Below are positions 2,497-60,526 of a stretch of 60,560 nt of DNA, one piece after another (the stretch's first letter is position 1; each line of letters begins with the position of its first letter). The position numbers and the translations under genes were made by a program. This DNA comes from an uncultured delta proteobacterium (GTDB lineage: Bacteria; Bdellovibrionota_C; UBA2361; OMII01): positions 1 through 60,560 of the forward strand of contig CAIXKI010000169.1 of NCBI GenBank assembly GCA_903920005.1, given 5' to 3'. Below the pieces are notes generated by a model. The model saw only the letters and a program-made list of their open reading frames with translations, had not been told where the DNA came from and searched no databases.

Positions 2497-2670
2497 AGCC
2501 GTATGTGCATGTCTGGGCTCTGGATTTACTGGGAAACGTGCGACTCCCTCTGGGATAACATAACTTCTTGGCCGCGTCCGGGTTCCTTATCTGAGGATTG
2601 AGCATAGAATCTCGTCTTGATACGCCAGGAAAGTGCCGCAAAAACGCGACGGCGGAGTTTTGCCTCTTAT
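2497..2670 (+). repeat. Repeat module A, copy 1 (174 bp)
   Basis: Aligns base for base with 13556-13729 in direct orientation, with 5 mismatches by eye. Lies in a gene-free gap. Confidence 0.95.
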
Positions 2671-2840
2671 AAGGAACACCTACTTGTGAGTAAAGCGCTA
2701 CCCGTATTTAGGCCCCACACTACTTCTGCGCCTCTAGCGACTTATCACTTTTGTATGAGGTCTATAGTTCCAGTTCTCAGGCTTAAGTTTGAGGCGTTCC
2801 GCTTCAAGTCTTCTGGCCTTCATTTCTCAAGTCCCCGTTA
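2671..2840 (+). repeat. Repeat module B, copy 1 (170 bp)
   Basis: Its reverse complement recurs at 15280-15448 with a few mismatches. The first 33 nt also recur at 43333-43365. Confidence 0.95.
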
Positions 2841-2854
2841 GTATACTTCTCTTT

Positions 2855-2903
2855 CTTGAAATTTAGCGATGGCCCCGGGGCTTGTTGTCTCTCGTTCGAG
2901 CGA
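2855..2903 (+). repeat. Repeat module C, copy 1 (49 bp)
   Basis: cttgaaatttagcgatggccccggggcttgttgtctctcgttcgagcga matches the reverse complement of 15132-15180 with about 5 mismatches. Confidence 0.85.
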
Positions 2904-3342
2904 GTACTCGACGCTATTATTTCACGGTCCTCAAAGTCGATCGCAACACAGCAATAAACTAGTCGGCCCTATTGGCTATACTGGTGGAACTTGTGAGTAT
3001 TTTGCCGTGTTAAAAATGAGCTGTAAGCTCATTGGGGCTGGTGTATCTCCGACACAAGTAGATTTCTTTACTATTACGACGACCTCAAGGATGAGACCAT
3101 CTTTGGTGGCGCGAAGATATTGGGGAGGAGAGCCCGTCACGATGGGTGAGCGTACACCATAAGGAACGCTCGCCGCTATCGGCAGACCCCTCTCACTGGG
3201 ACATCGCACTTCCGATACGTTCACCTACCTGTTGTAGCCAAACCGATCATGGCCTCTACTAAGACGCTGTTGAGATGCGAGTAATGCTCCCTACACCGTA
3301 CAGCGTGCCAGCCAAATGGGACACATTAAGAATCCGAGACTA

Positions 3343-3591
3343 TCAGCGGTTGAATAAGATTTTACTGAGCGCTCGTATAGGGTACGTGAGCGCAAACAGC
3401 ATACCCCGGTAAAAAAGATGTCGTCGCCGTTGCCGGATAGCTTCCTTCTCCTTGACCTTTCTCACGTAAATCGGCTTTGAACGACGCAAGCCCAACAAAA
3501 CCGATTCGGCGATTCGATCTTCAGAGTCAACAACTGGGACCTCTCCTATTAAAGCTCCCGCGATCACGTTTTCAGCGTCTCTAGCGCGCAT
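3343..3591 (-). CDS. Hypothetical 82-aa protein, last ORF of the MNIO operon (tentative)
   Basis: ATG at 3591 overlaps the DUF692 stop (3581-3583) by 11 nt. Basic, no recognisable domain. Its position is the only support. Confidence 0.35.
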   Translation of the reverse strand: MRARDAENVIAGALIGEVPVVDSEDRIAESVLLGLRRSKPIYVRKVKEKEAIRQRRRHLFYRGMLFALTYPIRALSKILFNR

Positions 3592-4462
3592 TCTGCACCG
3601 CTGTCCGCCGTTTACGCCCTCGGGAGAGCGCCCCTCGCGCTTTATCCAATTCCGCCTTTATTTCCTCGAATGCCGGATAGTTCCCATCACGCTCAAGTAT
3701 GACGGTAAGTGTTTGTGGCACGACCGAGGCCAACTCCTCTAGTAATGTATAAACTTCCTCAGCTACGGGGTGAAGATGATCATCAAGGAAATATTCGCCC
3801 GCTTCATCTGTCGTGGCGTGCCCCCCCGCGATATGCACGTATTTGACATCGGACAGGGGAAATTTGAGCATTTCCGCAAGCCAGTCAGTTTGGAAGTTTC
3901 TGCTGTTCGCGTAAATATTTTCAAGATCAAGAAGCAATTTAACACCGGCGCCCTTGATTATCTCAGTGGTCCACGCTGCCTCACTCATCGTACTACCGAT
4001 GGGGTGATACAAGGTCGCGATGTTTTCGAGGTGAGGGACTGAGCCGATGGCTTTCGCGGCTACATGAACGTTACGTATAGTGCTCTCAACTGTCTCCTCT
4101 GACCACGGTGGCGCCGCTAAATGTCCAAGCTCATGGTCCGTAGTCCTTACAAACGCGAAGTGTTCTGACCAAGCCTCTGGTCCTATAGCGCCAACGACTC
4201 GGGCGACAGCCTCAACGTGCTTTGAACTCACCGCGTAGGTGCTCGCTAATCCCAAACTAACAGCGTGAACGACGATATCAACTTCAGAGGAGAGACGATT
4301 GAAAACTTTTAGTTCCGACTTGCTAAGGTGCGTACAATTTTCAGCGACGACCTCTATGATATCTATCTCTTCAAGTTGTTCAAGGATTCCCACTCCGATC
4401 TCTGGGCGCCAGCCTACTCCAACGCGATCTTCAACCGATTTGTAGCCCTGAAAATCGCTCAT
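3581..4462 (-). CDS. DUF692 / MbnB-like multinuclear non-heme iron oxidative enzyme (MNIO)
   Basis: Family blocks are all present: GVGWRPEIG, IDIIEVVAEN, HAVSLGLAS, WSEHFAF, LENIATLY, LLLDLENIYANS, YVHIAGGH, LDDHLHPV, TVILERDGNYP. The ATG at 4462 overlaps the stop of the upstream gene (TGATG). The track start at 4465 is a TTG one codon earlier. Confidence 0.9.
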   Translation of the reverse strand: MSDFQGYKSVEDRVGVGWRPEIGVGILEQLEEIDIIEVVAENCTHLSKSELKVFNRLSSEVDIVVHAVSLGLASTYAVSSKHVEAVARVVGAIGPEAWSEHFAFVRTTDHELGHLAAPPWSEETVESTIRNVHVAAKAIGSVPHLENIATLYHPIGSTMSEAAWTTEIIKGAGVKLLLDLENIYANSRNFQTDWLAEMLKFPLSDVKYVHIAGGHATTDEAGEYFLDDHLHPVAEEVYTLLEELASVVPQTLTVILERDGNYPAFEEIKAELDKARGALSRGRKRRTAVQNAR

Positions 4463-5316
4463 CAACTACCACAGCCCCCGCACCCGCCACCACAGCCACC
4501 GCCGCCGCAACTACTACCACACGAAGTTCCGCAGCTCGATCCGCTTCCACCCTCAGATTTAAACGCTGACATGAACATATACTCACTCGAAGAGAGAACA
4601 CTTACTCCAAACACAGCTATTAGGAATGAAAAATGACGGTTCTGCGATGGATTCACCAACTCTTTTGTCTGGCTTTTCAACCTACCGAATAGGGTCTTTA
4701 GATCTTTAAGAGCGACGCTTCCCGCTGGTGTATACCAAAGAGGGAACTTCGCGTGAACGACAACTCCCACCACCGCCAGTATCATCAAAAATTCTATATT
4801 GTGCCTTCCGCGTTGAAGCGCAACCAGAATTTTTATCATCGCGAAAGCCAGCAAAGTGCCAATAATTATTATTTTAACTATGACCGACCTCTGTCGCTCA
4901 TCGCCCGACAGAATAAGATGATCATTGACCAGTGGCTGATGAAATAGCTTTTCCGCCACCTCTGCCGATCTTCCAGTCTCAAGTTTCCCAAGCGTCAATC
5001 CCGCAAAACAGTTCTCAAGGATCGCCCTTTCGAGCTGATGAGTGGTGGACGCCAACTGGCCCTTTTGGTACGTAATCGTATCTCCACTTACTTTGGCCGC
5101 CCTACGATGTACGAGCGTGGCCGCCGCCACCTTCACCGCTTCTTTTGGCCCTCCTCTTAGGTACGCGATTTGATACGGGTCAGTCAGCGGACGTCGAACA
5201 CTGCCGCTTTCTCCCAAAGTCCGCCAGAATAGCCAGAGGACCGCACCGCTCGCGACAATAAGCAGCGAGTAGAAAACTAAAAATTGCGGTCCATGCAGAT
5301 CAAATGGGTTAATCAT
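4462..5316 (-). CDS. TIGR04222-type membrane protein with C-terminal Cys/Gly-rich tail
   Basis: The N-terminus MINPFDLHGPQFLVFYSLLIV matches my recollection of the TIGR04222 signature. Several TM helices. The C-terminus is SEGGSGSSCGTSCGSSCGGGGCGGGCGGCGS. ATGA overlap with the upstream gene. Confidence 0.75.
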   Translation of the reverse strand: MINPFDLHGPQFLVFYSLLIVASGAVLWLFWRTLGESGSVRRPLTDPYQIAYLRGGPKEAVKVAAATLVHRRAAKVSGDTITYQKGQLASTTHQLERAILENCFAGLTLGKLETGRSAEVAEKLFHQPLVNDHLILSGDERQRSVIVKIIIIGTLLAFAMIKILVALQRGRHNIEFLMILAVVGVVVHAKFPLWYTPAGSVALKDLKTLFGRLKSQTKELVNPSQNRHFSFLIAVFGVSVLSSSEYMFMSAFKSEGGSGSSCGTSCGSSCGGGGCGGGCGGCGS

Positions 5317-6035
5317 ACAAGCGATTTAATCTGCTCCTTCATGAGAGAGGTAAGTTCGAGGACATCGGAGAGCGCCCGCTTAATCTCGTCAAGGGCGAAG
5401 GTCTTGCCTTCTCTCGCCTCTGACACAACACAGAGACTCATCTTAAATCCATCAGCTCTAATCCCCGCCGCTACCAATTCTAGAGCCTGTTTTGGGCTTT
5501 CAAAAGCCACCCCCCTCATCTCAAGGAACGCGCTCGCTGATGCCCGCAAAGGTGAAACGCTATCCGCTAGAATTTGAGTTAGTTGCTCCGCGCTTTCATT
5601 CCTCAACGCGAAGGCGTAGCGCAGGCGCAAAAGAAGGTTCAGAAGAACCTGCCTCAATCGAGCCACAAGCGCCTCTTTAGAGATCGCCATCGCGGCGAAT
5701 GGATCAGAGCCATACAAAACGCGACGCCGACGAGAGATATCCGAGAACTTGACCGCGAATAATTGCGACGCTGTGGCCAGTTCGCTCTCAAGTAGAAACA
5801 TCACCTGCAGGTCTATCGCCGCCGCGGCAAAGGTAAGAATTGAAGACAACGCGGCCGCGTCGTTTGGGGTGTACGAGCGCGCGACCAAGACAACATTCAC
5901 ATCAGACGTCTTCCGCAGCCGCCCCTCCGCCGCGCTTCCGTACAGAACCACCGAGACGAGCCGATCTCCGAAAACTATTTCAGCTTCACCGACAAACGCG
6001 TCTAGCGCTTTATTGACCCGCTCTGGTAGTTGCAT
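5313..6035 (-). CDS. Pol-beta-superfamily nucleotidyltransferase with helical C-terminal domain (KNTase-like layout)
   Basis: The motif VVLYGSAAEGRLRKTSDVNVVLV is hG[GS]-x(9-13)-D-h-X with Asn in place of the second acidic residue. 240 aa with a helical C-terminal half. First gene of the coupled operon. Confidence 0.7.
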   Translation of the reverse strand: MQLPERVNKALDAFVGEAEIVFGDRLVSVVLYGSAAEGRLRKTSDVNVVLVARSYTPNDAAALSSILTFAAAAIDLQVMFLLESELATASQLFAVKFSDISRRRRVLYGSDPFAAMAISKEALVARLRQVLLNLLLRLRYAFALRNESAEQLTQILADSVSPLRASASAFLEMRGVAFESPKQALELVAAGIRADGFKMSLCVVSEAREGKTFALDEIKRALSDVLELTSLMKEQIKSLV

Positions 6036-6363
6036 ACTAATTTTCTTCCCTTCCGATCACCTAAAATCCTCGGATCGGCCCAACTGTTTTTGTGCTCGCG
6101 CAGCGTTCAAAAAGCTCACCCACTATACAAGCTCTATCTCCACGCGAGCCCCGTTTGTTTCCGACGCCTATGTCCTTAAAAACAATTCGGTCTCCAGGCG
6201 AACGTGCTCTTGCAACGGAGCGCTGGTGACTTGCATCTTGCGGAATTCGAAACGATGCTAATAGGACTTACTCGTGTTCGCTAGTCAATTTATCCGCCTC
6301 AACGCGCGGGCTCTAATTGCTAAGCATGAGAATCGCTTCAAAGCACCGTGGAGAATCCAAAGG

Positions 6364-6498
6364 CCTTCTCTGGTCCTTCTCTGGTACAGGGCAACTCTCG
6401 ATCTCACTGACTCATCCGCACAACAAGCGAAAACCACACAGAAGAATGAGCCGGTTTGGAGTTGCCCTGTACCAGTGGAGCTGGACCAGTGGAGCTGG
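6364..6498 (+). repeat. Palindromic element, copy 1 (17-bp terminal inverted repeats + flanking tandem duplications)
   Basis: CTGGTACAGGGCAACTC (6381-6397) pairs with GAGTTGCCCTGTACCAG (6459-6475). Left flank ccttctctggt x2 (6364-6385). Right flank accagtggagctgg x2 (6471-6498). Confidence 0.95.
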
Positions 6499-6630
6499 CA
6501 TTCGCTGATAGAGAAATGTGTACGTTCTTAAAACATATGATGGCCAGGTTCAGCACGTTGATGAGTAGGTAGAAATCGGGATAACCACAGGAGACTCTTT
6601 TAGTTTCCGATTAGATTTTAAATCATGTAA

Positions 6631-6666
6631 TCATCGGATTTTACCGGGTCATCGGATTTTACCGGG
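6631..6666 (+). repeat. Perfect tandem duplication, 18 nt x2 (tcatcggattttaccggg)
   Basis: Read directly: 6631-6648 and 6649-6666 are identical. Confidence 0.95.
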
Positions 6667-6687
6667 CGGTCTCTGAGTGAAATAAGC

Positions 6688-6698
6688 GGGGGGGGGGG
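6688..6698. repeat. Homopolymeric G11 tract
   Basis: Eleven consecutive G, about 240 bp upstream of the Cys-rich secreted protein gene. Confidence 0.95.
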
Positions 6699-6703
6699 CT
6701 CGT

Positions 6704-6722
6704 ATTCCACTAAAAGTAGAAT
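6704..6722. promoter_or_regulatory. ATTCCAC-TAAAA-GTAGAAT box (imperfect palindrome), candidate operator
   Basis: tattccactaaaagtaga is identical over 18 nt to 43422-43439. It is related to the perfect palindrome at 42341-42361. Intergenic. Confidence 0.4.
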
Positions 6723-6936
6723 ATGTGCGTTTTGCGACATTTTTTTCCATGACAGGCGTCTTCAACATATATTTTTCTCTTAGTTTTGGGCGAACATTAT
6801 GTTTATATCCACCCGACGTAGTGACTGCTTAGAGTGTTTCAACGAGCCGTGGGCGTACGTCGAAGTGAAATCCACGGTGAGTGTATAAAATCTTCAGGCG
6901 CCTATTGGGTGCTTTGGGGAAATTAAATAGAGGAGT

Positions 6937-7356
6937 ATGAGTATGAGATTATTTTATGCAGCTCTCGGACTGGCGGTATCGCTGGTTGCCCTAGCAGGTT
7001 CAACTTCGATAGCGCAAGCAGCTTGCGGAGCGATTGCGGTTTATTCAAAAGGCGGCGCTGTAGAGATATCTGGCCCGACAACGATATGCCCCGAGGGTGC
7101 GGTTCCAGGAGATCCTGGATGCACTGAGGTGCAACAGGGTGCGTGTTGGCCGTGGTCAAAGAAAGTAATTCATACTTGTCCCGGTGGAAGCAAAGTTTAC
7201 GCGTTTGGAGATTGCGCACTATGTGTCTCCGAGAAAACGGGAACTCGAAATGCTGGTATCGCCTGCTGCGCTGCCATCACGACAGCTGGTAAAACTGAAC
7301 GACAGTTATGTGACAACAAGGTCAATAAAACAGCCGATGGTTTAGGCATGCCTTAG
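6937..7356 (+). CDS. Small secreted cysteine-rich protein (139 aa, 12 Cys)
   Basis: AGAGGAG ribosome-binding site before the ATG. Signal peptide MSMRLFYAALGLAVSLVALAGSTSIAQA. 12 Cys in the mature part. Confidence 0.8.
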   Translation: MSMRLFYAALGLAVSLVALAGSTSIAQAACGAIAVYSKGGAVEISGPTTICPEGAVPGDPGCTEVQQGACWPWSKKVIHTCPGGSKVYAFGDCALCVSEKTGTRNAGIACCAAITTAGKTERQLCDNKVNKTADGLGMP

Positions 7357-7476
7357 GCCTATAGGGCATCATGAAGTCAGCAAAACTTTCACGGCTCTTA
7401 CGGCAAAAAGAATGCTGGCTTAATCCCAAGGCGCTGGACTCCGATGAGTCCAGCGCTTACTCGCTGCGGAGGATGT

Positions 7477-9060
7477 ATGTACGCGGGCACCAAAACAAAC
7501 TTTTCCATGCAACTGGCAGGGCTTTCCCTCTTGAGTTTGGCAGGCTGCGCTCGACCTGGAGCGCAAGAAGCTGGGCTAGAGCGCAACAGTGGAACTCTCG
7601 GTCAAGACAGTTCGGCGCGCAGCTCCGTCAGGGTTTCAAATGATGGCAGCGTCTTCTCTCAAGAGTTGATAGCTGCCCCCAAGCCGCAGTTTGAAATACC
7701 CGAACTGAGTCGCGAGGTGCTTTCTGTTTTAGATCCGTCGGCGAGAGAGCCACTTATAGAGCTGCTTAGTAAAAGTCTCTCATCACCGGAAACGATGACG
7801 CCCCACGATTGGGTTGAGGAGATGTCAAATGCTCTCACCGCCGGCGGCATGTCCGAAGGAGAGATCCCGAAAGTGCTCGGCGGCTATGTCGCAAGGGGAT
7901 TATTTCCGCCCGCTCAGTATGTAGAAACTATTACGATCCTTAACAGACGATATCCCGAGGATGCGGCTGTCGCGGGCGCGTTCGCGAAGGTAGCTCTCGT
8001 GGGAACAGATCTACCATCTGCTTCCGTTTTATTCTCCTGGACAAGCTCTGCCGGAGGGAACCTTGGCCTCGATGCTCTCTCGGCGGAGAGATATCAGCGG
8101 TCCGATCCTAGCTGGGCCCCGGAAAACGCATGGGACTTGCCTATCAACGTCAACCTTGTTTTTGATGGATTGATGCCTCAATCTGAGGGTAATCCGCAAC
8201 CTCGCATCTCCCTAACCGGGACGATGGAGGGCTTGTCGGATTCAGGTAAGCTCCTTTGGTCTCGAGACCTAGAGCCGATCGCTTTCACAAATCCGGCATC
8301 CGATCATAATTACGTATCACTTCAGATCCAGGGAGAATCTGACCTTCCTGGCGGGCCGATTACTATTCGGATAACTTACGAAATAGCTCAACAATCCCCC
8401 GAGGGCTTTGAGGACTCCCGGACAAGTCGATTTCGAGGGGAGCACTGGACGAGGTTCGTGCCTGTGACTGAGAAATCAGCTCCTCCCAAAGAAGTTGGAT
8501 ATCGCGAGGTTCCGTTGGGTCTTCATGGACAGAGATTGGAGAATCCCTCAATCTTATCATCCGCGGTGTTTGACGTCGTTTCAGATATCTTAGTGACCAA
8601 CCGAAAAAACCTCTTGGAGAGGCTTAGAGCGGAGGAGCAGCGGGAGTTGCTTCGGCATGAATTAATCGGCAGCCCACTATCGGAAATATCGCTCAGTCAT
8701 GACTCGAAAGGCGCTGCATCAACCTTGGCGCTGCGACGCGAAGGCACCTCCATTTTAGTCTTCGGCGCAACCTGGTGTGGCCCCTGTGGCGCTATCGCTC
8801 CGGAGGTCGAGGCATTCATTCAGAGCAAGAGCACTCATCAAGGCCGCGCCGCTGTGTATCGTTTTTCCGTCGATGACCCAGAGGACTACGGAAAAGCAGT
8901 AAACGGTAAGTACCCAGATGGTGTGATCACACCGAGCCAAGGTGAGGCTCTCACCATCTCCTCCGTTCCCGCTTATGTAGTCACCAAGGATGGAAGAATC
9001 GTTGATTTGGGAGTTTTAGGACCTGGCGACATCGAGCGGCTTGCTGCGCAACATAAGTGA
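7477..9060 (+). CDS. Lipoprotein with C-terminal thioredoxin-fold domain (WCGPC)
   Basis: GGAGGA sits 3 nt before the ATG at 7477. Signal and lipobox MYAGTKTNFSMQLAGLSLLSLAGC. C-terminal ILVFGATWCGPCGAIAPEVEAF. The track start at 7444 is less likely. Confidence 0.8.
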   Translation: MYAGTKTNFSMQLAGLSLLSLAGCARPGAQEAGLERNSGTLGQDSSARSSVRVSNDGSVFSQELIAAPKPQFEIPELSREVLSVLDPSAREPLIELLSKSLSSPETMTPHDWVEEMSNALTAGGMSEGEIPKVLGGYVARGLFPPAQYVETITILNRRYPEDAAVAGAFAKVALVGTDLPSASVLFSWTSSAGGNLGLDALSAERYQRSDPSWAPENAWDLPINVNLVFDGLMPQSEGNPQPRISLTGTMEGLSDSGKLLWSRDLEPIAFTNPASDHNYVSLQIQGESDLPGGPITIRITYEIAQQSPEGFEDSRTSRFRGEHWTRFVPVTEKSAPPKEVGYREVPLGLHGQRLENPSILSSAVFDVVSDILVTNRKNLLERLRAEEQRELLRHELIGSPLSEISLSHDSKGAASTLALRREGTSILVFGATWCGPCGAIAPEVEAFIQSKSTHQGRAAVYRFSVDDPEDYGKAVNGKYPDGVITPSQGEALTISSVPAYVVTKDGRIVDLGVLGPGDIERLAAQHK

Positions 9061-9191
9061 TTGTTCCCCTTCTCTGGTACAGGGCAACTCTCGATCTCAC
9101 TGACTCACCCGCACAACAAGCGAAAACCACACAGAAAAATGAGCCGGTCCAGAGTTGCCCTGTACCATCGGAGCCGGACCATCGGAGCCGG
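9060..9191 (+). repeat. Palindromic element, copy 2
   Basis: GGTACAGGGCAACTCT (9076-9091) pairs with AGAGTTGCCCTGTACC (9151-9166). Followed by accatcggagccgg x2 (9164-9191). Starts on the stop codon of the thioredoxin lipoprotein gene. Confidence 0.95.
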
Positions 9192-9300
9192 CGCGCTTCT
9201 GCGGAACTACTGTCTCCCCTTTTTTTATCTCTGCCGAACGCTCTTTATCCACCCTCCAGGCATGCGCCCGATCCGCGTAGGATTTGCCGTGTGGCTCTAG

Positions 9301-9567
9301 CTATGCCCGCATTTTTCCGAATTCAGGGTTTTCTGCGGCGGTAAGGTCGTACGACCACTGTAAATTGGCCCATGTCTCAGGGTCTGTTCCGAGTGCGCGA
9401 GCAAGTTTCTTTGCCATCGATGCTGAGATGCCTCTTTTGCCCCTACAGATCATGTTAATAACCCCTGCCTCAACGCCGATATGTTTAGCAAGTTGAGATT
9501 GAGTGATACCTCTGTCAGATAGGATATCCTGCAAAATTTCGCCCGGATGAATCGTGTTTGGAAGCAT
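9301..9567 (-). CDS. higA: HigA-family antitoxin (XRE-type HTH)
   Basis: IHPGEILQDILSDRGITQSQLAKHIGVEAGVINMICRGKRGISASMAKKLARALGTDPETWANLQ is the typical HigA/VapI pattern. Lies 9 nt downstream of higB. Confidence 0.9.
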   Translation of the reverse strand: MLPNTIHPGEILQDILSDRGITQSQLAKHIGVEAGVINMICRGKRGISASMAKKLARALGTDPETWANLQWSYDLTAAENPEFGKMRA

Positions 9568-9576
9568 AGCTACTCC

Positions 9577-9873
9577 TTAGTGATAATCCACAATTTCAAC
9601 GTCTAACACCTGACCCTCAACAAACCGAAAGCAGATTCGATGCTGGTCGTTTATCCTAATACTCATTTGACCTTTACGGTCTCCTTTGAGTCTCTCAAGC
9701 TTGAGTCCCGGCCAAGCACGCAAGCTATCTAAGGTGCGGATACTGTCGAGAAAAACGAGTTTCTTGTAAGCCGAATAATGAAGCTCGCTTGGTAACAGCT
9801 TCAATGTTCGTTTGCTCTTCTTTCCATAAGCAATCTCCTCCATTTCTTTATTTTTGAAGGACTTAATCGCCAT
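9577..9873 (-). CDS. higB: HigB-family (RelE-fold) toxin
   Basis: MAIKSFKNK ... LKLERLKGDRKGQMSIRINDQHRICFRF ... VEIVDYH matches the HigB killer-protein pattern. Toxin-first gene order is typical of higBA. Confidence 0.9.
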   Translation of the reverse strand: MAIKSFKNKEMEEIAYGKKSKRTLKLLPSELHYSAYKKLVFLDSIRTLDSLRAWPGLKLERLKGDRKGQMSIRINDQHRICFRFVEGQVLDVEIVDYH

Positions 9874-9887
9874 GTATATAAGTATAC
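9874..9887. promoter_or_regulatory. GTATA-TAAG-TATAC inverted repeat abutting the higB start; candidate HigA operator
   Basis: 5-bp arms, read directly, immediately upstream of the higB ATG. Confidence 0.3.
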
Positions 9888-10147
9888 AGCATGCCTATAC
9901 ACCGTACAAGAATTCAATTTGCATCATCACTTCAGTCAGTTATCGTGAGCCTAGTCATAGCCGTCGGGTTGAAGGGGCAAAGAGCAAGCTCGCCCTGACG
10001 TCGGGGCGCGAAATACTAATCCACCAAACACGCCATACGGTGGTAATGGGCGGGTTCTTGTGCTGACTACTGCAGTTGAAAAACCTGTCGGGGTTCGGCC
10101 GAAGCTGCCTCATTCAGGTGTCCACCGCCATATAGGCGGGCTCAGCT

Positions 10148-10272
10148 ATTGTTCCCCTCTCTGGTACAGGGCAACTCTCGATCTCACTGACTCACCCGCA
10201 TAACAAGCGAAAACTACACAGAAAAATGAGCCGGTCCAGAGTTGCCCTGTACCAGTGGAGAACCAGTGGAGA
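10148..10272 (+). repeat. Palindromic element, copy 3
   Basis: CTGGTACAGGGCAACTCT (10161-10178) pairs with AGAGTTGCCCTGTACCAG (10238-10255). Followed by accagtggaga x2 (10251-10272). The left edge attgttcccct is shared with copy 2. Confidence 0.95.
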
Positions 10273-10318
10273 CCGACGCGCAAGCAGTTTTAACAACTGA
10301 CCTGAGGCGTCTGGGTAT

Positions 10319-11443
10319 TTACGCTGCAGGTTCTGCTCGATCCTTGGGAAGAGGCTTTACGTCTTTACACGCGTAATACGGTGCCTCGTTGATAGGCGCG
10401 CAGATCTGACCCGCTTTGCAACTAGCACAACCTGAATACGTTGAGCATTTCCCCTTATAGCAACCCTCGGTAGGCCCGCAGCAGTTGTTGGCGTTATCTG
10501 CACTTGGACATGGATTGCCACAAGCAGGTGCTGCGGGAGGATCCTGGGGCGGAGGATTATCACCAGCCGGTGAATCGATGGCGCCAGGATTCGGAGCTGT
10601 TGGGGAATCCATCGGATCCGGATTTTGGGCAGGCGGCGAGTCAATTGGGCCAGGATTTAATGGCGGGAAGATGTCGTTTTTCGGACGACACTGTCCAGTC
10701 AACGGATCGCACACCATATCGGTGCCCACGCACGCGTCCTTGCACGCATCGGGTACCGGATCTGGTAGTGGGTCGGGCTTGGGGTCTGGTGCAGGACTAG
10801 ACACCTTTACGCAAGTGAAATCCTGTGGGCAGCCTTTTTCGTCTTTCTTGTTTACGCACTGCTCGCCAGCGGGACAGCTGGATGCTCCGCAGGAGCGAAA
10901 ACTGCATGCGAGACAGCCTGACTTAGATGAGGAGTCACAGGCATACATACAGCATGAAGTACCACCAGAACTATTTGCACATGGCACCTTGGCTTCTCCG
11001 GTGCAGAGGGCGCCGGGATTTGATGGTGGATTCCCTGGGTTGCTCGGTGGAGGTGAGGGAGGAGGCTTATCCCTATCGCAATCGTTGCAAAGATTTACAT
11101 TCTTCGGATAGGGGACTGTTTGAAAGACCGAAGCATCACACGAGGGGTTCAGCCATCGCCTGGTCGCGCGGTCTTTTCCTACGCAATCTATGGTAACGAG
11201 CTTATTGCATCCGTATTTAGCCGGGTTGCTGGCTTTTCTTGCCTCTATCTGCGCCTTAATGTCAACGCAGCCAGGACAGTTTTGAAGGGTGTATAACGTG
11301 ATTACGCAATCAGGCCTTGAAGGGTCCGAACCCACCGCACTAGCCGCGCCGCTGCTAATCACCGGTTGCTGCGCCCTAACACTGCCGCTCACCAATAAAA
11401 GACCTATGCATGCTGCAGCGCTGTACCTGGCTAGACTGTTCAT
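10319..11443 (-). CDS. Secreted Cys-rich / Pro-rich protein with N-terminal glutaredoxin-like CPGC segment
   Basis: GGGGGA ribosome-binding site and ATG at 11443. Signal peptide MNSLARYSAAACIGLLLVSGSVRAQQ. VITLYTLQNCPGCVDIKAQIE, over 40 Cys, and NPxPxDSP repeats. The track start at 11458 is a TTG. Confidence 0.8.
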   Translation of the reverse strand: MNSLARYSAAACIGLLLVSGSVRAQQPVISSGAASAVGSDPSRPDCVITLYTLQNCPGCVDIKAQIEARKASNPAKYGCNKLVTIDCVGKDRATRRWLNPSCDASVFQTVPYPKNVNLCNDCDRDKPPPSPPPSNPGNPPSNPGALCTGEAKVPCANSSGGTSCCMYACDSSSKSGCLACSFRSCGASSCPAGEQCVNKKDEKGCPQDFTCVKVSSPAPDPKPDPLPDPVPDACKDACVGTDMVCDPLTGQCRPKNDIFPPLNPGPIDSPPAQNPDPMDSPTAPNPGAIDSPAGDNPPPQDPPAAPACGNPCPSADNANNCCGPTEGCYKGKCSTYSGCASCKAGQICAPINEAPYYACKDVKPLPKDRAEPAA

Positions 11444-11670
11444 TAAATCCCCCACCAAGATATAAATTCCTGGAAGTAACTTCGGCGCTTATACGTAAAT
11501 CCCTGAGCATTTTTGCCTAATTAGATCGGAGGGCATAACACAATAAAATCGGCATACCTATCAGGGGTATAGCTAATAGTATGAAGCAATGTTCTAGAGA
11601 TCTCAGACTAGTGGAGAGAAGGTGGTAACGGATCAGCAGCCTTCGCCTAAACGTTATCGAAAGAGGTTTT

Positions 11671-12066
11671 ATGTTAAAGACGCGTTCACTATGTGCACTC
11701 ATCGTTGGTATCGGGTTGCTTAGCTCTCACACCAGTGCATGGGCAGAAGACCTCAAAGCCGCAGTGACCGCCACCGATGTTAATGCTGTTCACGCAGACT
11801 GCATGATCCCCCAAAGCTATTATCTTAAATACAAGTTAGATAGGTCCAAAAAGAAGCTTCAATTTGTCGGACAGAAGAAGAAGCTCAGTCGAAACAAATC
11901 AGCAACCTTCGTCACGAGAGTTGTAGATCAGAACGAAGGCGTAGGGCGCTCGATTAGAACGAGCTTCAACCTAAAGCGCAAAACTGTTCAGGTCACAGAA
12001 GATGCCGTGAAGTTGGACAATAGCGGTGGTTCGTGCCGCTTTACCTTCTCTGCTCGGCTTAGTTAG
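11671..12066 (+). CDS. Small secreted protein (131 aa), unknown function
   Basis: AAGAGG ribosome-binding site. Signal peptide MLKTRSLCALIVGIGLLSSHTSAWA. Confidence 0.65.
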   Translation: MLKTRSLCALIVGIGLLSSHTSAWAEDLKAAVTATDVNAVHADCMIPQSYYLKYKLDRSKKKLQFVGQKKKLSRNKSATFVTRVVDQNEGVGRSIRTSFNLKRKTVQVTEDAVKLDNSGGSCRFTFSARLS

Positions 12067-12483
12067 TAGTATTCTTTAACCAATTAGCGGTTAATCGAGA
12101 GAGGCGCGCACAACACCGTCTGCCGCCTTCTCCCCTGCTATTTTATGAAGGACAGGACGATCGATCGCTTTTTCGTAAGTAGCTGAACTGTAGTAGCGGG
12201 CGGATATTTGTTCTGTCGAGATGGGTCAAGCGAGGGTCGAAATGCGAGGTCTGTAGCTCCACGCTATGGTTTCAAGGCTGCAAAGAGAGCGTGGAAGGGC
12301 GAGCTAAGTTTTATGTCTGTTTATGTCTGTAGCCGGGCTACTCAAAAATCCTTGGAGTATCGACTGGTTGAGTTCATCTCTGAAGCGAGCCGAGTCTCGA
12401 GCAGCTGAAATTATCAAGAAAATAGGGTAGTCCGGCTACAATACAAAACTTCTCGGTTAGATACTCCTTAACTTAATGGCGGT

Positions 12484-12512
12484 GACCCTGTACCAGAGAC
12501 ATCCAGAGACAA
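12484..12512 (+). repeat. Partial right end of the palindromic element + tandem duplication
   Basis: gaCCCTGTACC followed by ccagagacat / ccagagacaa. Confidence 0.7.
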
Positions 12513-12535
12513 CTATTGGAAGTGCCACCGCTAAG

Positions 12536-12605
12536 GTACCCTGCACCAACAGCGGGAGCACCAACAGCGGGACCCTGCATCAGCAGCGGGACCAGAAGCG
12601 GGAGG
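12536..12605 (+). repeat. Two degenerate right-end motifs (ACCCTGCACC, ACCCTGCATC), each followed by a tandem duplication
   Basis: accaacagcgggagc / accaacagcgggacc, then agcagcgggacc / agaagcgggagg. Confidence 0.65.
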
Positions 12606-12623
12606 AAGGTAGCGAGCTGCAAA

Positions 12624-13196
12624 CTACTCTTGAGACAAGCGGTCAAGGACCTCGCTGGTAAGAGTGCCCCATTCGGAGACCATTCCGTTTTCAATTATCA
12701 GGTATGCCGGCACGGACGTTAGGCCGAGCGCTCGAAGCTGGCTACTCGAAATGGCACCATCCGGATATCGATCGCGCACCACTTCGGGGAACACAGCTTC
12801 GTCGTCATCAATCGATATTCTATAGACGGTGTCCGTTGAACCACTTCCTTGTATTGCCGACACGAAGCTTTTCACGTGGGGTGCGATGCTGGCACACGGC
12901 TCGCACCACGACGCTCCGAAAAAAAGTATCGACCGCGTATCTTCGCTAAGCAACAGACGGAACGGTTCGCCGGTTTTGGGGTCGTACGCCATCTCTAAAC
13001 TGGCGAGCGAGCGACCGAGAAGAGTTGACCGGGCTGCATGCACCTCTTCAGCATCGATAGCGCGTTTCTGAAGAACATCTTTCGAGTAAAATAGGTGCAT
13101 GCGAGCGAACTCCACCAGCGGGTAGCTCGCTAGAGCGGGATACGGCAACTCCTGCGCCCGCTGCCCAAGGGGCCAAGAACTTCTGGTGCAGCCCAA
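12624..13196 (-). CDS. Thioredoxin-fold protein (WCEPC), paralog of the C-terminus of the 7477-9060 product
   Basis: ILFFGASWCEPCASIAPHVKSF ... YPDGAISSSQLRALGLTSVPAYLI aligns with ILVFGATWCGPCGAIAPEVEAF ... YPDGVITPSQGEALTISSVPAYVV. Start uncertain: TTG at 13196 or ATG at 13100. No signal peptide seen. Confidence 0.75.
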   Translation of the reverse strand: MGCTRSSWPLGQRAQELPYPALASYPLVEFARMHLFYSKDVLQKRAIDAEEVHAARSTLLGRSLASLEMAYDPKTGEPFRLLLSEDTRSILFFGASWCEPCASIAPHVKSFVSAIQGSGSTDTVYRISIDDDEAVFPEVVRDRYPDGAISSSQLRALGLTSVPAYLIIENGMVSEWGTLTSEVLDRLSQE

Positions 13197-13220
13197 CTCG
13201 AAAAACCCCAGTTTTCTTTA

Positions 13221-13272
13221 ATTGTTATAGAGAGTTGATTAGTTGGCCTGCACCAGTGACGGCCAGTGACGG
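13221..13272 (+). repeat. Collapsed or degenerate copy of the palindromic element
   Basis: attgtt-atag-AGAGTTG-attagttgg-CCTGCACC, followed by ccagtgacgg x2. This is the left edge plus the right end without the central part. Confidence 0.6.
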
Positions 13273-13555
13273 CAGCACCTCATCGCGCAAGCACCCACAC
13301 TGGTGCTGGAACTTCGACTCCCACTGGAACTGAAGGTCATCGCGAGAGTGGTAGACTATCTGGTAGAGGGAAGAGGCTTCGGGGGCACGTCTTCTGCAGT
13401 GTTGGAGCTTATCCTTTGCCTTCTCCCACGTCTAGCGCCTGAGCATACAGGCTTGTTCGGGGAGGTGCGGCTAGTGGGTGTGTTGGAATTAGTGAGAAGT
13501 ACGGATAGGGATTTAGGTCAGGCTTCAGAGAGAGCCATGTGCCTGCAGTCACGAG

Positions 13556-13729
13556 AGCCGTATGTGCATGTCTGGGCTCTGGATTTACTGGGAAACGTGC
13601 GACTCCCTCTGGGATAACATAACTTCTTGGCGGCGTCCGGGTTCGTTATCTGAGGATTGAGCATAGAAGCGCGTCTTGATACGCCAGGAAAGTGCCGCAA
13701 AAACGCGACGGCGGAGTTTTGCCTCTTAT
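13556..13729 (+). repeat. Repeat module A, copy 2
   Basis: Direct repeat of 2497-2670. Confidence 0.95.
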
Positions 13730-13746
13730 CATGCAGGGGGCGCGCC

Positions 13747-14919
13747 TCATTGTCTCAGCCACTTATTAAGCAGTCCAAGGTATTCTCGCCACGGAAGAAC
13801 GGTCGCAAGACCTTGCAGCTGAAAGCTTTCGGGCACATCCGCAACGATGTAGCGCGGAACCGTTGGGTGCTCTTCAGCAAAGGCACGCAAGCCAGAGAAA
13901 TACTGCGGTGTAATGACCGACGAAGATTTTATCTCTACGGCTGCTATGAGTTCGCCCCTGTTTTCAATCAACAGGTCAACCTCCTGGTCGTCTTTGGTCC
14001 GCCAGAAGAATATCCTACCATCAATTGAAAGGTATCGCAGCATGCGGTCCGTCTCCAATACGATGAGGTGCTCAAAGAGACGTCCTCGCCGCGTTGCATC
14101 TGGAGATGACCGTAGTTGCCGATCAAGGGCATTGAGCACACCGAGATCAAAGAGATAGAATTTTGGAGTCGAACGCAATCGCCTTCGCACACTCTTACTG
14201 TATGCCTGCAATTTAATACCGATAAGCGTGTCGACTAAAATATCGTAGTAGCTTTGAACTGTTCTTGGCTGAAGCTGCGCCTCACGTGCGACGTTTGAGA
14301 AATTGAGAAGCTCCCCAGATTGTTGGGCAGCGACCTCTAAGAAATGCAGAAAGCCCGGTAGATTTCTCACAAGAGACTCTTGCTGGATCTCTTCGCTTAG
14401 ATACGTAGTAACATAGGCGGTCAATAGATCGATGCGCTCGTCAGTCGATGGCCTCAAAATAATGCTGGGCAGGCTCCCGAACCGTAGCAGTTCGTCGAGT
14501 GTGGTGCGCTCCCCTAGCTCGTGCAGCGTAAGGGGGAATAGGTTTCGCGAGACGGCTCGCCCGCCCAGTAAATTCGCTCCCTCTCGTTTTAGCTTTCTCG
14601 CACTCGACCCTGAGAGAATAAAAACCGTAGCATGCTCATGCATCAATCTTTGCACCTCATCAAGGAGCGCGGGAATCTTCTGCACTTCATCTATAAAGAG
14701 GATCTCAATTCGCTCATCAATAATTTTCCTCTTCGCCTCCGCGTAGAACTGCCCCGGTGAAGCCAAGTATCTGTGAAACACCGTCCGATCTAACAAATTA
14801 ACGGTCCACACCCGACGACCGGCTATGAAGCTCTCGATGAGCGTTGTTTTGCCGGTTTGCCGCGGACCAAACAGGAAAAAACTAATAGAAATAGGTAGGT
14901 TGCATATTCGATGCAGCAT
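13747..14919 (-). CDS. AAA+ ATPase of the DUF4143 / COG1373 type
   Basis: Walker A FLFGPRQTGKTTL, Walker B ILFIDEVQ, 390 aa, with the C-terminal region typical of the DUF4143 family. Confidence 0.8.
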   Translation of the reverse strand: MLHRICNLPISISFFLFGPRQTGKTTLIESFIAGRRVWTVNLLDRTVFHRYLASPGQFYAEAKRKIIDERIEILFIDEVQKIPALLDEVQRLMHEHATVFILSGSSARKLKREGANLLGGRAVSRNLFPLTLHELGERTTLDELLRFGSLPSIILRPSTDERIDLLTAYVTTYLSEEIQQESLVRNLPGFLHFLEVAAQQSGELLNFSNVAREAQLQPRTVQSYYDILVDTLIGIKLQAYSKSVRRRLRSTPKFYLFDLGVLNALDRQLRSSPDATRRGRLFEHLIVLETDRMLRYLSIDGRIFFWRTKDDQEVDLLIENRGELIAAVEIKSSSVITPQYFSGLRAFAEEHPTVPRYIVADVPESFQLQGLATVLPWREYLGLLNKWLRQ

Positions 14920-15131
14920 GGATCAAATAAATACGCCCTATTTGATCTAATGACAAGAGAATTTGCAACTAACTGATTATACACCGTTAAATCATTCAGG
15001 GAGTAGTACTATGAGGCCTCTCCACCGCCGCACTCCCCCATTTTGGTGAACCCCGCATTGAGAGAACCTTGGCTTGCGCGTGCACCAACGTCGAGAACTC
15101 CGCGAGCGCAGCACGCCCGACTGCCTTCAGA

Positions 15132-15180
15132 TCGCTTGAACGAGAGACGACAAGCCCCGGGGTCATCGGTGAATTTCAAG
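15132..15180 (-). repeat. Repeat module C, copy 2 (inverted)
   Basis: Reverse complement of 2855-2903. Confidence 0.85.
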
Positions 15181-15279
15181 GACGAGACAACGTGCGGGGC
15201 TTGCGAGCATGGCGAGCTGCCATCGAGCACGTAAGGCTACAATAAAATTACGAGCTAGCGAGTAATTTCTCACTGTTGG

Positions 15280-15448
15280 TAACGGGCACTTGAGAAACGA
15301 AGGTCAGAAGACTTGAAGCGCAACGCCTCAAACTTCAGCCTGAGAACTGGAACTATAGCCCCATACAAAAGTGATAAGTCGCTAGAGGCGCAGAAGTAGT
15401 GTGGGGCCTAAATACGGGTAGCGCTTTACTCACAAGAAGGCGTTCCTT
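15280..15448 (-). repeat. Repeat module B, copy 2 (inverted)
   Basis: Reverse complement of 2671-2840. Confidence 0.95.
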
Positions 15449-15464
15449 TTGTTTTCACAATCTG

Positions 15465-45148: not shown

Positions 45149-45880
45149 TTACTTTGCGTTTTCGCGTAGTTCGCCGCAGTAAAGCAGACACAGCTTTGAG
45201 CATAATTGGCTCACAACCGCGTGGTCCGAAAGAGGCATTCCAAAGATACGATCCTTCATGGGGGGGAATAGGACCATGGACTGGGCAGTCATACCAACGG
45301 AGTAGGTATTGGCGGTAGCGATGAGCCCGATGTCGTGGGTGGTAAGGTTTCCGTACACGGTCCACGATACGTTCTTGAATTCGGGGAGTTCAAATTCGTA
45401 AAACTTGATCGCCTTACCCGTATTCTCGGCGGCAAGAAGATCTCTGGCCACGTTTTGTTCGATTGAAAGATGGTTCAAGGTGGATGGTGTCATTGTGGGG
45501 ATTATATAAGAAGTCGATGCGTAGGCGTAGGGTGAGGGGCTTTTTAGTCTAAAGGACTCTAACTGGCTGGCGGCTGGCACCGGGGTAGTTTCACGGTGTC
45601 GGTATTGGTAGTGCGATCTTGAGATCCAATAGCGGCGGTCAGTGAACGATTGCGTCCATCCTACTTCATTAAATCGTCCCCAGGCCCTTAGCGCCGAGTC
45701 GACGATAGCAAGTAATTTCGGCCGCCCCGCACTATCAATTATTGTACTTAACTTTGAAACGTAGAGTGCCCCATTCGGATATACCGATCGGATGAAGCCA
45801 GTCTTGATGAAAAGCGGACCCCAGCGGAGAAAAAAGCTTTCTCTACGGCTGAAGTCCGCAAGCTGGTGAACATGCTTCAC
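45149..45880 (-). CDS. Hypothetical protein (243 aa)
   Basis: ORF only. Confidence 0.5.
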   Translation of the reverse strand: MKHVHQLADFSRRESFFLRWGPLFIKTGFIRSVYPNGALYVSKLSTIIDSAGRPKLLAIVDSALRAWGRFNEVGWTQSFTDRRYWISRSHYQYRHRETTPVPAASQLESFRLKSPSPYAYASTSYIIPTMTPSTLNHLSIEQNVARDLLAAENTGKAIKFYEFELPEFKNVSWTVYGNLTTHDIGLIATANTYSVGMTAQSMVLFPPMKDRIFGMPLSDHAVVSQLCSKLCLLYCGELRENAK

Positions 45881-45942
45881 AAGCGATCAGGACGCGCCAA
45901 CACCTACATTGATGCTCTGCGAAGGGAGTGATTTCTCAACTC

Positions 45943-54888: not shown

Positions 54889-56538
54889 TTAGAGCAGTTG
54901 CCGGATAAGGTTGATTCGCTCTCTGAGTTGCTTTTCGGTGCATGCCGTTTGGCTCTTTACCTTTTGTTGAGCATTTATCTGGGAATGGATCTGGGCGTGT
55001 GTGCGGCCTGTCTTTTTGTGAAGCATGTTAACGAGCTTTCGCACCTCAACGGTGAGGAAAGCTTTCTCCTCGGCTCGGGTGCGTTTTTCGTCGAGGCGCG
55101 CTTCGACTTTCTGCGTGACCGCGGAGTGAAGTTCTATAGGTTGGTCTCCCGCAAAGAGGGAGAGTTGATTTCCGTGTACGATAACGGAGTTGAGGCCGCT
55201 ATTGTGAGAGCTCAGGGCCTCCCATGAAGGACGGTCTGGTTTCTCTGTTTGCCGCTCTTCGGCGCGATCGAAGATGTCGTCGTTTTCACCGGTCGGCCGT
55301 ATGCAGTGTCGAATCTCGTTCTCGATCTCTTCGGCTAGTCGAGTGAGCGTTGGATCGGCGGGGAGATAACAGTACGCGACCTGAAGGCATTTGAGGGTTG
55401 GTATGCGGCGAACGATGCGGCCGAGAAACTGCCTGAAGTACATCTTCGTTCGCACAGTCGTTGCGTACACACCGACCCGTAGCCGTGGTATGTCGACCCC
55501 TTCGCTCACCATGTTGCATGCGACGAGCCACGGCTCTGATGAATCCCGAAATCGCTTCAGCTTACGGGCAGCCTCGGTCTCTTCAGAAAGAACAACGACC
55601 GGAGAGGTTTTTGATATTGAAGCCAAGAGCTTCGCGAGCTTTCGGGCTGATGTCTGGTCCGCGGCGACGAGAAGTCCTCCCGCGTTTGGATGCTCTCGAC
55701 GAGTCGTCATGAGCATGTCATGGGCGTCTTTGAGCATCGGCGTAATCCAGCCGCTGTCGCCATCGAGCGCCGCTCTGAGGCGTCGTGATTGCCCGATGTG
55801 GTCGAGTTCATCGGAGAAGAGGGCGTACGCTTCTCCCGCATCGTCTCGCCATCCAACCTCTCCACCATAGGTAAAGAACGCGGTTGGTCGGCATACTCCT
55901 TCCTCGACGGCGCGGCTGTATGAATAAGAATAGTCTGGTACTCCAAAACCAAGGTCGTCGTACGAGACGAACGGTATAGGCGCGTTATCGCTTCTGAAAG
56001 GGGTGCCGCTCAGGCAGATTATAAACTTGGCGTCATGAAACGCTGATCTAAGTCCGTCTCCCCATGAGAGGCCGTCTCCCGCATGGTGGACCTCATCAAG
56101 GATGATGCAGGAGTTTTCGGTAAGGCGACGGAAGAGCCCTGGTTTTTGAGCGACCTGCTGGTAGGTCACAACAAATCCGTTAAAATCTCCAGCCAATATT
56201 CCCGTTCCGTTCGAGAAGGAGCTGTCGAGGTGGAGGTCCATCGAGAGAGCTGATCGGGCCCACTGACCTTTAAGATGCGCGGTAGGCACAACGATACCGA
56301 TCCGTGATGCCCCACGCTTTCTCATCTGATGTAGGGCAAGTACGAGGGCGGCCGTTGTTTTTCCGGCTCCGGGAGTCGCTTCGAGAAGGAGCGTTTTTTC
56401 TCCTCTGAGCACGCAGTCTCTATACGAGCCAAACGCCTCTTGTTGCCAAGGGCGAAGCTTGATCTCGGATCCTATCGATTGTGGAGCGATCTGTACTGCT
56501 GGTGCGGCGGTCATGGAACTCGAAACTACTTCGGACAC
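54889..56538 (-). CDS. Superfamily 2 DEAD/DEAH-box helicase (type III restriction Res-like core)
   Basis: Walker A EATPGAGKT, Walker B ILDEVHH, and motif VI-like FLGRIVRR. Start is GTG at 56538 or ATG at 56514. Confidence 0.8.
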   Translation of the reverse strand: MSEVVSSSMTAAPAVQIAPQSIGSEIKLRPWQQEAFGSYRDCVLRGEKTLLLEATPGAGKTTAALVLALHQMRKRGASRIGIVVPTAHLKGQWARSALSMDLHLDSSFSNGTGILAGDFNGFVVTYQQVAQKPGLFRRLTENSCIILDEVHHAGDGLSWGDGLRSAFHDAKFIICLSGTPFRSDNAPIPFVSYDDLGFGVPDYSYSYSRAVEEGVCRPTAFFTYGGEVGWRDDAGEAYALFSDELDHIGQSRRLRAALDGDSGWITPMLKDAHDMLMTTRREHPNAGGLLVAADQTSARKLAKLLASISKTSPVVVLSEETEAARKLKRFRDSSEPWLVACNMVSEGVDIPRLRVGVYATTVRTKMYFRQFLGRIVRRIPTLKCLQVAYCYLPADPTLTRLAEEIENEIRHCIRPTGENDDIFDRAEERQTEKPDRPSWEALSSHNSGLNSVIVHGNQLSLFAGDQPIELHSAVTQKVEARLDEKRTRAEEKAFLTVEVRKLVNMLHKKTGRTHAQIHSQINAQQKVKSQTACTEKQLRERINLIRQLL

Positions 56539-60514: not shown

Positions 60515-60526
60515 ACGGTTGTCCCT

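Follow-up and report, generated by a model that had tools for sequence, protein, structure and literature searches.

Here we report a family of hairpin-forming repeats in a 60,560-nt contig (the window; GenBank CAIXKI010000169.1, assembly GCA_903920005.1) from an uncultured bacterium of the Bdellovibrionota. The repeats are probably non-autonomous elements similar to REPINs, the hairpin-forming doublets of repetitive extragenic palindromes (REPs), and tied to a divergent, multi-paralog family of HUH-type proteins of freshwater Bdellovibrionota that resemble the REP-associated tyrosine transposases (RAYTs). The evidence for this assignment comprises the anatomy of the repeats, the identity of their tips with the flanks of the RAYT-like gene, the HUH and tyrosine motifs and the RAYT-like fold of its product, the statistics and polymorphism of tandem duplications anchored at the tips, and the position of synteny breakpoints at the element ends. 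A preliminary description, made from the window sequence alone, had interpreted the repeats mainly as an array of integron attC sites without an integrase (a cluster of attC sites lacking integron integrases, CALIN). The attC/CALIN reading is rejected, while the observation that the repeats delimit cassette-like units stands.

Hairpin elements of the window

A repeat search of the window confirmed the three near-identical, co-oriented copies first described within the 6.4-13.3 kb region, which share a direct repeat of 125 nt at positions 6375-6499, 9068-9192 (91% identical to the first) and 10155-10279 (82%, ungapped). Copy c1 (6364-6498, forward strand) has an 85-nt core, ACAGGG...CCCTGT, at 6386-6470, two left units of CCTTCTCTGGT (6364-6385) and two right anchored units of ACCAGTGGAGCTGG (6471-6498), and it recurs with identical duplications in the sister-strain locus L011 (13089-13179). 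Copy c2 (9060-9191, forward strand) has its core at 9079-9163 and two right anchored units of ACCATCGGAGCCGG (9164-9191); its left extension, ATTGTTCCCCTTCTCTGGT, begins, as already noted in the preliminary description, at the final base of the TGA stop codon (9058-9060) of a thioredoxin gene, and its L011 orthologue has one additional left unit (CCCCTTCTCTGGT x2). Copy c3 (10148-10272, forward strand) has its core at 10166-10250 and two right anchored units of ACCAGTGGAGA (10251-10272).

The tips of the window elements read CTGGTACAGGGCAAC / GTTGCCCTGTACCAG. Cores span 85-87 nt and include five unrelated interiors with identical tips, the ends being conserved while the interiors differ between genomes. 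The 16-nt arm GGTACAGGGCAACTCT occurs six times on both strands (0.2 occurrences expected), once per strand in each of the three copies. The tip 10-mer CCCTGYACCA is confined to positions 6382-13370, and the rest of the 60 kb holds three chance matches with one mismatch each, in agreement with the earlier statement that the motif was not seen elsewhere. Of the fold originally proposed, an outer stem enclosing a second one, folding of the three copies reproduced the outer stem as 17-19 perfect, bulge-free pairs (fold z-scores of the element copies from -3.2 to -6.6); the inner stem proved weak, and the interior is poorly structured. All element copies are intergenic, and all elements of the 60 kb window lie inside a hypervariable island at 3068-15451.

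Two partial right ends previously noted at 12484-12512 and 12536-12605 are real. The first is part of a solo right end of a second subfamily (CTCCTTAACTTAATGGCGGTGACCCTGT; 12464-12512, forward strand) followed by ACCAGAGACAT / CCAGAGACAA units, and this subfamily is found in paired form in L013 (~5150-5300). The second comprises two degenerate tips (CCCTGC; 12539-12605, forward strand), the first followed by GCACCAACAGCGGGA x2 with the boundary CCCT|GC and the other by two imperfect units. The supposed collapsed copy at 13221-13272 is actually a complete, diverged short member of the family at ~13174-13273 (forward strand), with the left tip CTGGTGCAGCCCAAC (13183-13197), the right tip GTTGGCCTGCACCAG (13242-13256) and two right anchored units of CCAGTGACGG (13253-13272, forward strand). 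At locus L045 (~3860-3900), CTCTCTCCTGGTACC occurs twice in tandem and is followed by CTGTACC; these two tips almost without a core look like the vestige or footprint of an element.

In the preliminary description, the GGGCAAC and GTTGCCC stretches of the outer stem were taken for the R boxes of attC sites, which implies an integrase-less array in which an IntI supplied from another locus would act on the folded bottom strand and so excise and insert the cassettes. The repeats do resemble such arrays in being homogeneous, co-oriented, hairpin-forming sites of species-specific sequence with conserved ends and differing interiors, which separate gene units including the higBA toxin-antitoxin pair and show cassette-level variation at their borders. 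True attC sites follow the consensus RYYYAAC (R'') and GTTRRRY (R') and form an imperfect hairpin, in which an unpaired spacer and extrahelical bases mark the recombined strand. Here, however, two of the seven positions in GGGCAAC, and likewise in GTTGCCC, deviate from the consensus, and the perfect 17-19 bp stem has no extrahelical bases or unpaired spacer. The preliminary description had itself objected that the stem reaches outside the R boxes and that ORFs lie on both strands; both objections hold, with pairing continuing 8-12 bp past the putative boxes. The element orientation is mixed in the sister strains L012, L014 and L015, G|TT is never the site of a breakpoint or duplication, these being located at GT|AC or the outer edge of the element, and the tips flank the gene of an HUH enzyme instead of being associated with a tyrosine recombinase. 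In line with the earlier remark that there is no integrase, neither an integrase nor a transposase domain was detected among the window ORFs of at least 150 aa (60 kb) and the shorter island ORFs that were scanned. An attC origin is thus exceedingly improbable, and AAC/GTT triplets alone are insufficient for annotating palindromic arrays beside toxin-antitoxin genes as CALINs.

A RAYT-like gene family bracketed by the same tips

Representative genomes were scanned with a 17-nt arm, and three solo ends were found ~100 nt upstream of a 322-aa ORF in the metagenome-assembled genome (MAG) JBKCMS01 (L024). This ORF gave a weak match to the NCBIfam family REP_Tyr_transpos that covers the whole profile (E 6e-6). 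Its 139 relatives measure 311-322 aa, and one of these carries the label RayT in its source. An N-H-x-H motif and the Y120...N124-P125 signature ('Y..LNPVRAGL') are invariant in the family, which also possesses a conserved Cys-containing C-terminal half of ~180 aa. All 46 tested members match REP_Tyr_transpos weakly over its full 146 positions. The AF2 model (pLDDT 88) has as its top Foldseek match in PDB 4ER8_A (E 4e-5, TM 0.71, rmsd 2.5), the E. coli RAYT bound to a REP hairpin, followed by the IS608, ISDra2 and IS200 TnpA proteins. Among representative genomes, the family is restricted to Bdellovibrionota-type MAGs, and its carriers include MAGs with the window's element family, e.g. JBIJBE01, JBKCMS01 and JBIIEK01. 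Metagenomes that hold the window's population also contain several paralogs of the gene at similar depth.

At every locus examined, a left tip TGGTRCA-NNN-CAAC is located 66-200 nt upstream of the gene and a right tip GTTG-NNN-TGYACCAG 180-300 nt downstream. The loci with tips on both gene flanks (L024/L062, L056-L061 and L063-L089) belong to related MAGs, not to the window's own genome. The variable triplets of the left and right tips match each other in about half of the loci (CCCC/GGGG, GCCC/GGGC, ACCC/GGGT), and the exact window-type tip is present as a left end in L062/L063 and as a right end in L072/L073. Since the same tips flank the RAYT-like gene, the window elements can be described as inverted doublets of the gene's end sequence.

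Two further observations concern this gene family. The only trace of it on the window and the sister-strain island loci is part of the C-terminal domain of a distant paralog, left beside a B repeat (see below) in L017 (5844-6113, corresponding to L020 5772-6041), in an island variant without intact elements. In L041 (2707-3946), a full-length paralog directly adjoins an N-terminal fragment of another, with which it shares 25% identity.

The identity of the bracketed gene also bears on the suggestion of the preliminary description that the repeats are a locally amplified miniature inverted-repeat transposable element (MITE). The non-autonomous nature implied by that term comes close to the REPIN-like assignment; the part that fares poorly is derivation from an insertion sequence (IS) with a DDE transposase and terminal inverted repeats, e.g. 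of the IS630/Tc1 type, with TA duplication in a palindromic target CTGG-TA-CCAG. The long and perfect terminal inverted repeats, the sharing of tips only between subfamilies and the low copy number would suit such an element, as would CTGGTACCAG, a perfect palindrome that results from removing CAGGG...CCCTG. Against it, no DDE transposase lies between such tips at any locus and the HUH/Y1 gene alone is repeatedly bracketed; empty sites and target-site duplications were not found among 22 loci; and neither CTGGTACCAG, the hypothetical empty target, nor TGGTACCA is enriched. Moreover, the supposed flank CTGG/CCAG is conserved across all subfamilies, as would be expected of a part of the repeat. 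We consider a DDE-type MITE quite unlikely.

Tandem duplications anchored at the tips

At every element end, a unit of 10-15 nt is perfectly duplicated in tandem directly outside ...CCCTGT. The unit sequence changes from copy to copy, and the feature is absent from the preliminary description. We surveyed 133 distinct tips for tandem duplications with a period of 8-20 nt that start within 2 nt of the boundary, and found them at 48 tips (36%), compared with 0.63% of random positions. The units measure 9-18 nt overall, with periods of 11-14 in 41 of the 48 duplicated tips. At GTAC-type tips, the perfect duplications start at ...CTGT|ACCA in 22 of 30 cases and at CT|GT in 5, while at GTGC-type tips 7 of 13 start at ...CT|GCACC. 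The longest arrays comprise five or more units, such as (CGAATTGGT)n in L013. Anchored arrays also occur at both ends of the 1.3 kb gene unit, where a tip has no local hairpin partner.

In L014, fully templated units of 11, 14 and 13 nt are nested within one another and show that new units are added beside the tip. The number of units varies between orthologous positions, with one in the window against two in L011 within a 99%-identical block of 7.4 kb, and with 2, 3 and 3 in L012, L014 and L015, respectively. Such differences between near-identical strains imply that the duplication process is recurrent and recent. The anchored duplications look like a scar of HUH nicking and rejoining, and they probably mark the in vivo cleavage site, which would thus be indicated without experiment. 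To our knowledge, anchored arrays of 9-18 nt duplications have not been described for REPs, and a search of the literature on Bdellovibrionota repeats and on tandem duplications at MITE ends returned nothing relevant.

The duplications could also have arisen by polymerase stalling or slippage at the foot of the hairpin, with no dedicated enzyme, if the palindromes are passive structural or regulatory DNA or RNA, such as stabilisers of mRNA 3' ends or protein-binding sites. The hairpin is strong, some copies are situated just 3' of genes, and two perfect tandem duplications, at 6631-6666 and 12310-12330, do not adjoin a tip, all of which accord with such a passive role. The duplication boundary, on the other hand, is sequence-specific (GT|AC or CT|G) across subfamilies of unequal stem length, it lies 4-6 bp inside the stem and not at its base, and the arrays around the gene unit lack a local hairpin partner altogether. 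The hairpins are not followed by a U/T tract. Rfam searches in both gathering and E-value modes produced only sub-threshold noise from miRNA hairpins (Rfam has no attC family), a tRNA scan found none, and promoter and terminator scans revealed nothing above shuffled expectation. Metatranscriptome contigs cover higBA at 2-3x and not the elements, although this coverage is too shallow to exclude an RNA. The family of structured 3'-untranslated RNAs suggested in the preliminary description thus finds no support in Rfam, the terminator scan or these metatranscriptomes, and we regard passive palindromes in general as an improbable explanation.

Copy number and rebuilding of the island in sister strains

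In the metagenome that best matches the window (run X1), the word depth is ~6-7 for unique island DNA and 42.6 for the element core, and in run X3 it is 51 for higBA and 160-435 for the element bins. These ratios correspond to roughly 3-8 element copies per genome equivalent, not to the hundreds of genome-wide copies by which the preliminary description would have recognized a plain MITE or REP. In the related MAG JBIJBE01, copies are present on at least three contigs; one copy is 95% identical to c2, against a divergence of 15-20% between the genomes. A scan of viral contigs found no paired tips.

The comparison of related strains proposed in the preliminary description revealed module-level variation at the element boundaries. 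Ten sister loci (L011-L020) were defined as contigs from several lakes that encode an identical HigA. They share the conserved flanks of the window, which encode EamA, SNase, Cu-ATPase and a 331-aa protein to one side of the island, with the KpsF, MacB and ABC genes to the other side; these flanks are ~80-83% identical to those of a Bdellovibrionota MAG from Lake Mendota (L021). In contrast, the content between the flanks, equivalent to the window island at 3068-15451, is rebuilt in each strain and includes remnants of TrbC/VirB3, fragments of IS110 and IS91, an M50 peptidase, a cassette of the MbnB type for ribosomally synthesized and post-translationally modified peptides (RiPPs), AAA_14/DUF4143 ATPases and thioredoxins. 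The islands carry from 0 to 4 elements each, and these occur in both orientations, mixed at the same locus in L012, L014 and L015.

The higBA module of the window, situated between c2 and c3 (9192-10147, reverse strand), is 97-99% identical in all sampled strains. The block that contains it (9191-10159) is bounded identically in 11 loci, exactly at the outer edges of c2 and c3: position 9191, the right edge of c2, is a synteny breakpoint in all other strains, and 10157-10159, the left edge of c3, forms the other higBA border. Furthermore, three different cargos lie between the same two elements, of the c3 and 13174-13273 types, in the window, L011 and L014, the sequences of which part about 8-12 nt outside the tips; at the 13174-13273 element, the three separate within ~8 nt of the left end. 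These edges and cargos demonstrate that the cassette-like variation at the element borders is real, as the preliminary description had perceived. The modules may be replaced by the RAYT-like enzyme or by plain homologous recombination between element copies.

In L012-L014, L016, L018 and L019 (~9060-9370), L013 (6348-7121) and L020 (2703-3434), the islands of other strains include TrbC/VirB3 remnants adjoining higB as well as fragments of IS110-type and IS91-type transposases. Such content may derive from a conjugative element, now decayed, for which higBA was the addiction module.

Comparison with known systems and proposed mechanism

REPIN-RAYT systems, or REPtrons, consist of REP doublets together with TnpA_REP; they belong to Groups 2 and 3 and occur mainly in Gammaproteobacteria, and the canonical RAYT gene is single-copy and vertically inherited. 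REPINs are inverted doublets of REPs flanking a RAYT (bioRxiv 10.1101/2021.07.10.451892; PMC8266576), and in canonical REPs each arm forms a short palindrome that follows a GTAG (PMC8266576). The RAYTs characterised so far cleave next to the hairpin, at a CT (or CA) dinucleotide, leaving a 3'-OH and a 5'-phosphotyrosine, and are capable of strand transfer; changing the guide GTAG to GTAC shifted the cleavage to GT or GA in vitro (PMC8266576). The elements of this study share with these systems an extragenic hairpin of ~100 bp with two inverted conserved arms and a variable spacer, an arm sequence that is also found on either side of an HUH/Y1 gene, the product of which has RAYT motifs and folds like a RAYT, and a probable cut at the CT or GT dinucleotide beside the hairpin. 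Their tandem units also recall the multimerisation seen in arrays of bacterial interspersed mosaic elements built from REPs.

Several observations weigh against this assignment. The arms (CTGGTACAGGGCAACTCT) are tips of 14-19 nt that are not self-complementary and contain GTAC or GTGC, unlike the GTAG-guided palindromes of REPs, and for GTGC-type tips the guide rule predicts a cut at GC|, whereas the observed boundaries are CT| and CA|. The protein is twice as long as a RAYT, with the Cys-containing domain as an addition; its REP_Tyr_transpos scores of 26-30 bits are far below the curated cut-off of 80, Pfam Y1_Tnp matches only 7 of the 46 members and weakly, and a sequence-profile search of PDB with the family gave no match, which made the fold comparison necessary. 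Each MAG encodes 2-6 diverged paralogs (63-80% identical) in place of a single gene, and the elements number only ~6-8 per genome and occur in another phylum, Bdellovibrionota. No RAYT-like gene was found on the window or the sister-strain island loci, and its presence in the genome of this organism is indicated only by co-occurrence in the same samples, where contigs of runs X1-X4 matched the L062 gene at 80% identity or more over just a 50-nt piece; the paralog of L073 did recruit contigs. Finally, the 22 loci contain no clean presence/absence sites or target-site duplications, and with neither an insertion polymorphism nor an empty site the transposition of the elements is not demonstrated. 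The system therefore departs from canonical REP/RAYT pairs in arm structure, tetranucleotide, protein architecture, gene copy number and element abundance, and it probably adds to their picture an unusual, informative scar at the likely cleavage site.

Other known systems share some of these features. IS200/IS605 elements have distinct subterminal hairpins at their ends and no terminal inverted repeats. Like them and their palindrome-associated derivatives (PATEs), the present system has a Y1 HUH-type enzyme, for which Foldseek retrieved the TnpA proteins of IS608 and ISDra2, is expected to use a single-stranded hairpin substrate and shows no target-site duplication. In contrast to IS200/IS605, the two gene flanks repeat each other in inverted orientation, and the divergence of the paralogs (63-80% identity) marks them as old and not as recent transposed copies. 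The concentration of repeats at module borders is further reminiscent of the Neisseria dRS3 repeats and Neisseria intergenic mosaic elements (NIMEs), Correia elements and the pdif modules of Acinetobacter, which are short repeats at the borders of exchangeable modules between conserved flanks. Those are driven by enzymes of the IS110-like, DDE or XerCD kinds or by homologous recombination; their sequences are unrelated to the ones described here, and none of them is known to show anchored duplication arrays.

Four additional candidates were considered and dropped: Xer/dif-like sites, for want of an 11-6-11 dyad; CsrA-binding GGA arrays, which are inconsistent between copies; TnpB/Cas12-type staggered cuts, which would be in the wrong position; and a tRNA-like CCA end.

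Under the REPIN-like assignment, we propose that either strand of the element, when single-stranded, would fold into the long hairpin and be nicked 3' of the hairpin foot, ...CCCT|GT|ACCA, by the RAYT-like enzyme encoded elsewhere in the genome. The enzyme would stay joined to the 5' end and leave a 3'-OH, which might be extended by 9-18 nt before rejoining; alternatively, strands cut at two nearby sites might be exchanged. Either route would add one copy of the flank and, with repetition, build the anchored arrays of tandem units. Placed in the hypervariable island, the elements would help to rearrange it, their ends serving as the junctions at which the modules (higBA; Cys-rich secreted proteins with thioredoxins) differ between strains.

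A bolder interpretation is that the elements and the RAYT-like enzyme form an HUH-based system for single-strand exchange of gene modules, analogous to integrons in function and unrelated to them in mechanism. Segments between two elements would be excised and inserted into other elements at their CT|GT|AC sites, which would explain the three cargos found between the same two elements in three strains, and the past activity of the enzyme could then be read from the unit arrays in the genome. We view this interpretation as rather unlikely.

The REPIN-like assignment would extend REPIN/RAYT-type biology to the Bdellovibrionota, and to an enzyme of divergent architecture, in which the HUH domain is combined with a conserved Cys-containing domain and several paralogs would each have their own matching tips. 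The arrays change between near-identical strains, so the activity of a domesticated transposase could be quantified in nature from time-series metagenomes of lakes. The coincidence of element ends with module replacement, in an island of secreted Cys-rich proteins and thioredoxins, offers a testable route for the shuffling of accessory genes in predatory bacteria.

Gene content and other features of the island

A Pfam scan confirmed the earlier gene calls. A thioredoxin domain is encoded by the ORF at 7444-9060 and Thioredoxin_8 by its paralog at 12624-13196, HigA and HigB are encoded at 9301-9567 and 9577-9873, and the Cys-rich ORFs of the island have no Pfam family. The genes adjacent to elements (6937-7356, 10319-11458 and 11671-12066 in the window; 4109-7500 in L045; L005) mostly encode small secreted Cys-rich proteins without Pfam matches, paired with thioredoxin-fold proteins. 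One such protein in L045 has a thrombospondin-type WSxWS...C motif and adjoins a large subtilase. A RiPP-like cassette within the island (3581-6035) includes an enzyme of the MbnB/TglH/ChrH kind (3581-4465), a membrane protein whose C-terminal tail is rich in Cys and Gly (4462-5316) and an ORF that weakly resembles nucleotidyltransferases (5313-6035).

On one side the island borders the conserved kpsF/MacB region, and on the other the conserved region that encodes the 331-aa protein and the Cu-ATPase. A second, non-coding repeat family, composed of segment A (174 nt) and segment B (~400 nt), is represented in the window at 2497-3067, 13556-13729 and 15132-15448 and also found in L001, L011-L021 and L027. 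An A-B pair precedes kpsF; A recurs directly and B in inverted orientation, and the variable island (3068-15451) is thereby bracketed by inverted copies of B (2671-3067 and 15132-15448). The A/B family is multi-copy in every island variant, 80-93% conserved between species and often located beside a gene for an AAA_14/DUF4143 ATPase. This ATPase was considered as the acting nuclease and dropped, as it accompanies the A/B repeats and not the tips.

The non-coding block at 12144-12330 is conserved in L045 (5303-5468, 88%) and L041 (1-119, 86%) and terminates in the perfect 10-nt tandem duplication TTTATGTCTG x2. The perfect 18-nt tandem duplication at 6631-6666 is absent from the contigs of runs X2 and X3 and is therefore recent, and a nearby run of ten G residues (~6688-6697) varies in length between samples. 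Outside the island, an inverted repeat pair of 116 nt (45794-45909 and 54989-55104; 72% complementary, 9 kb apart) is unrelated to the elements, and the end of the window contains 2.3 copies of a 27-nt tandem repeat (60454-60516).

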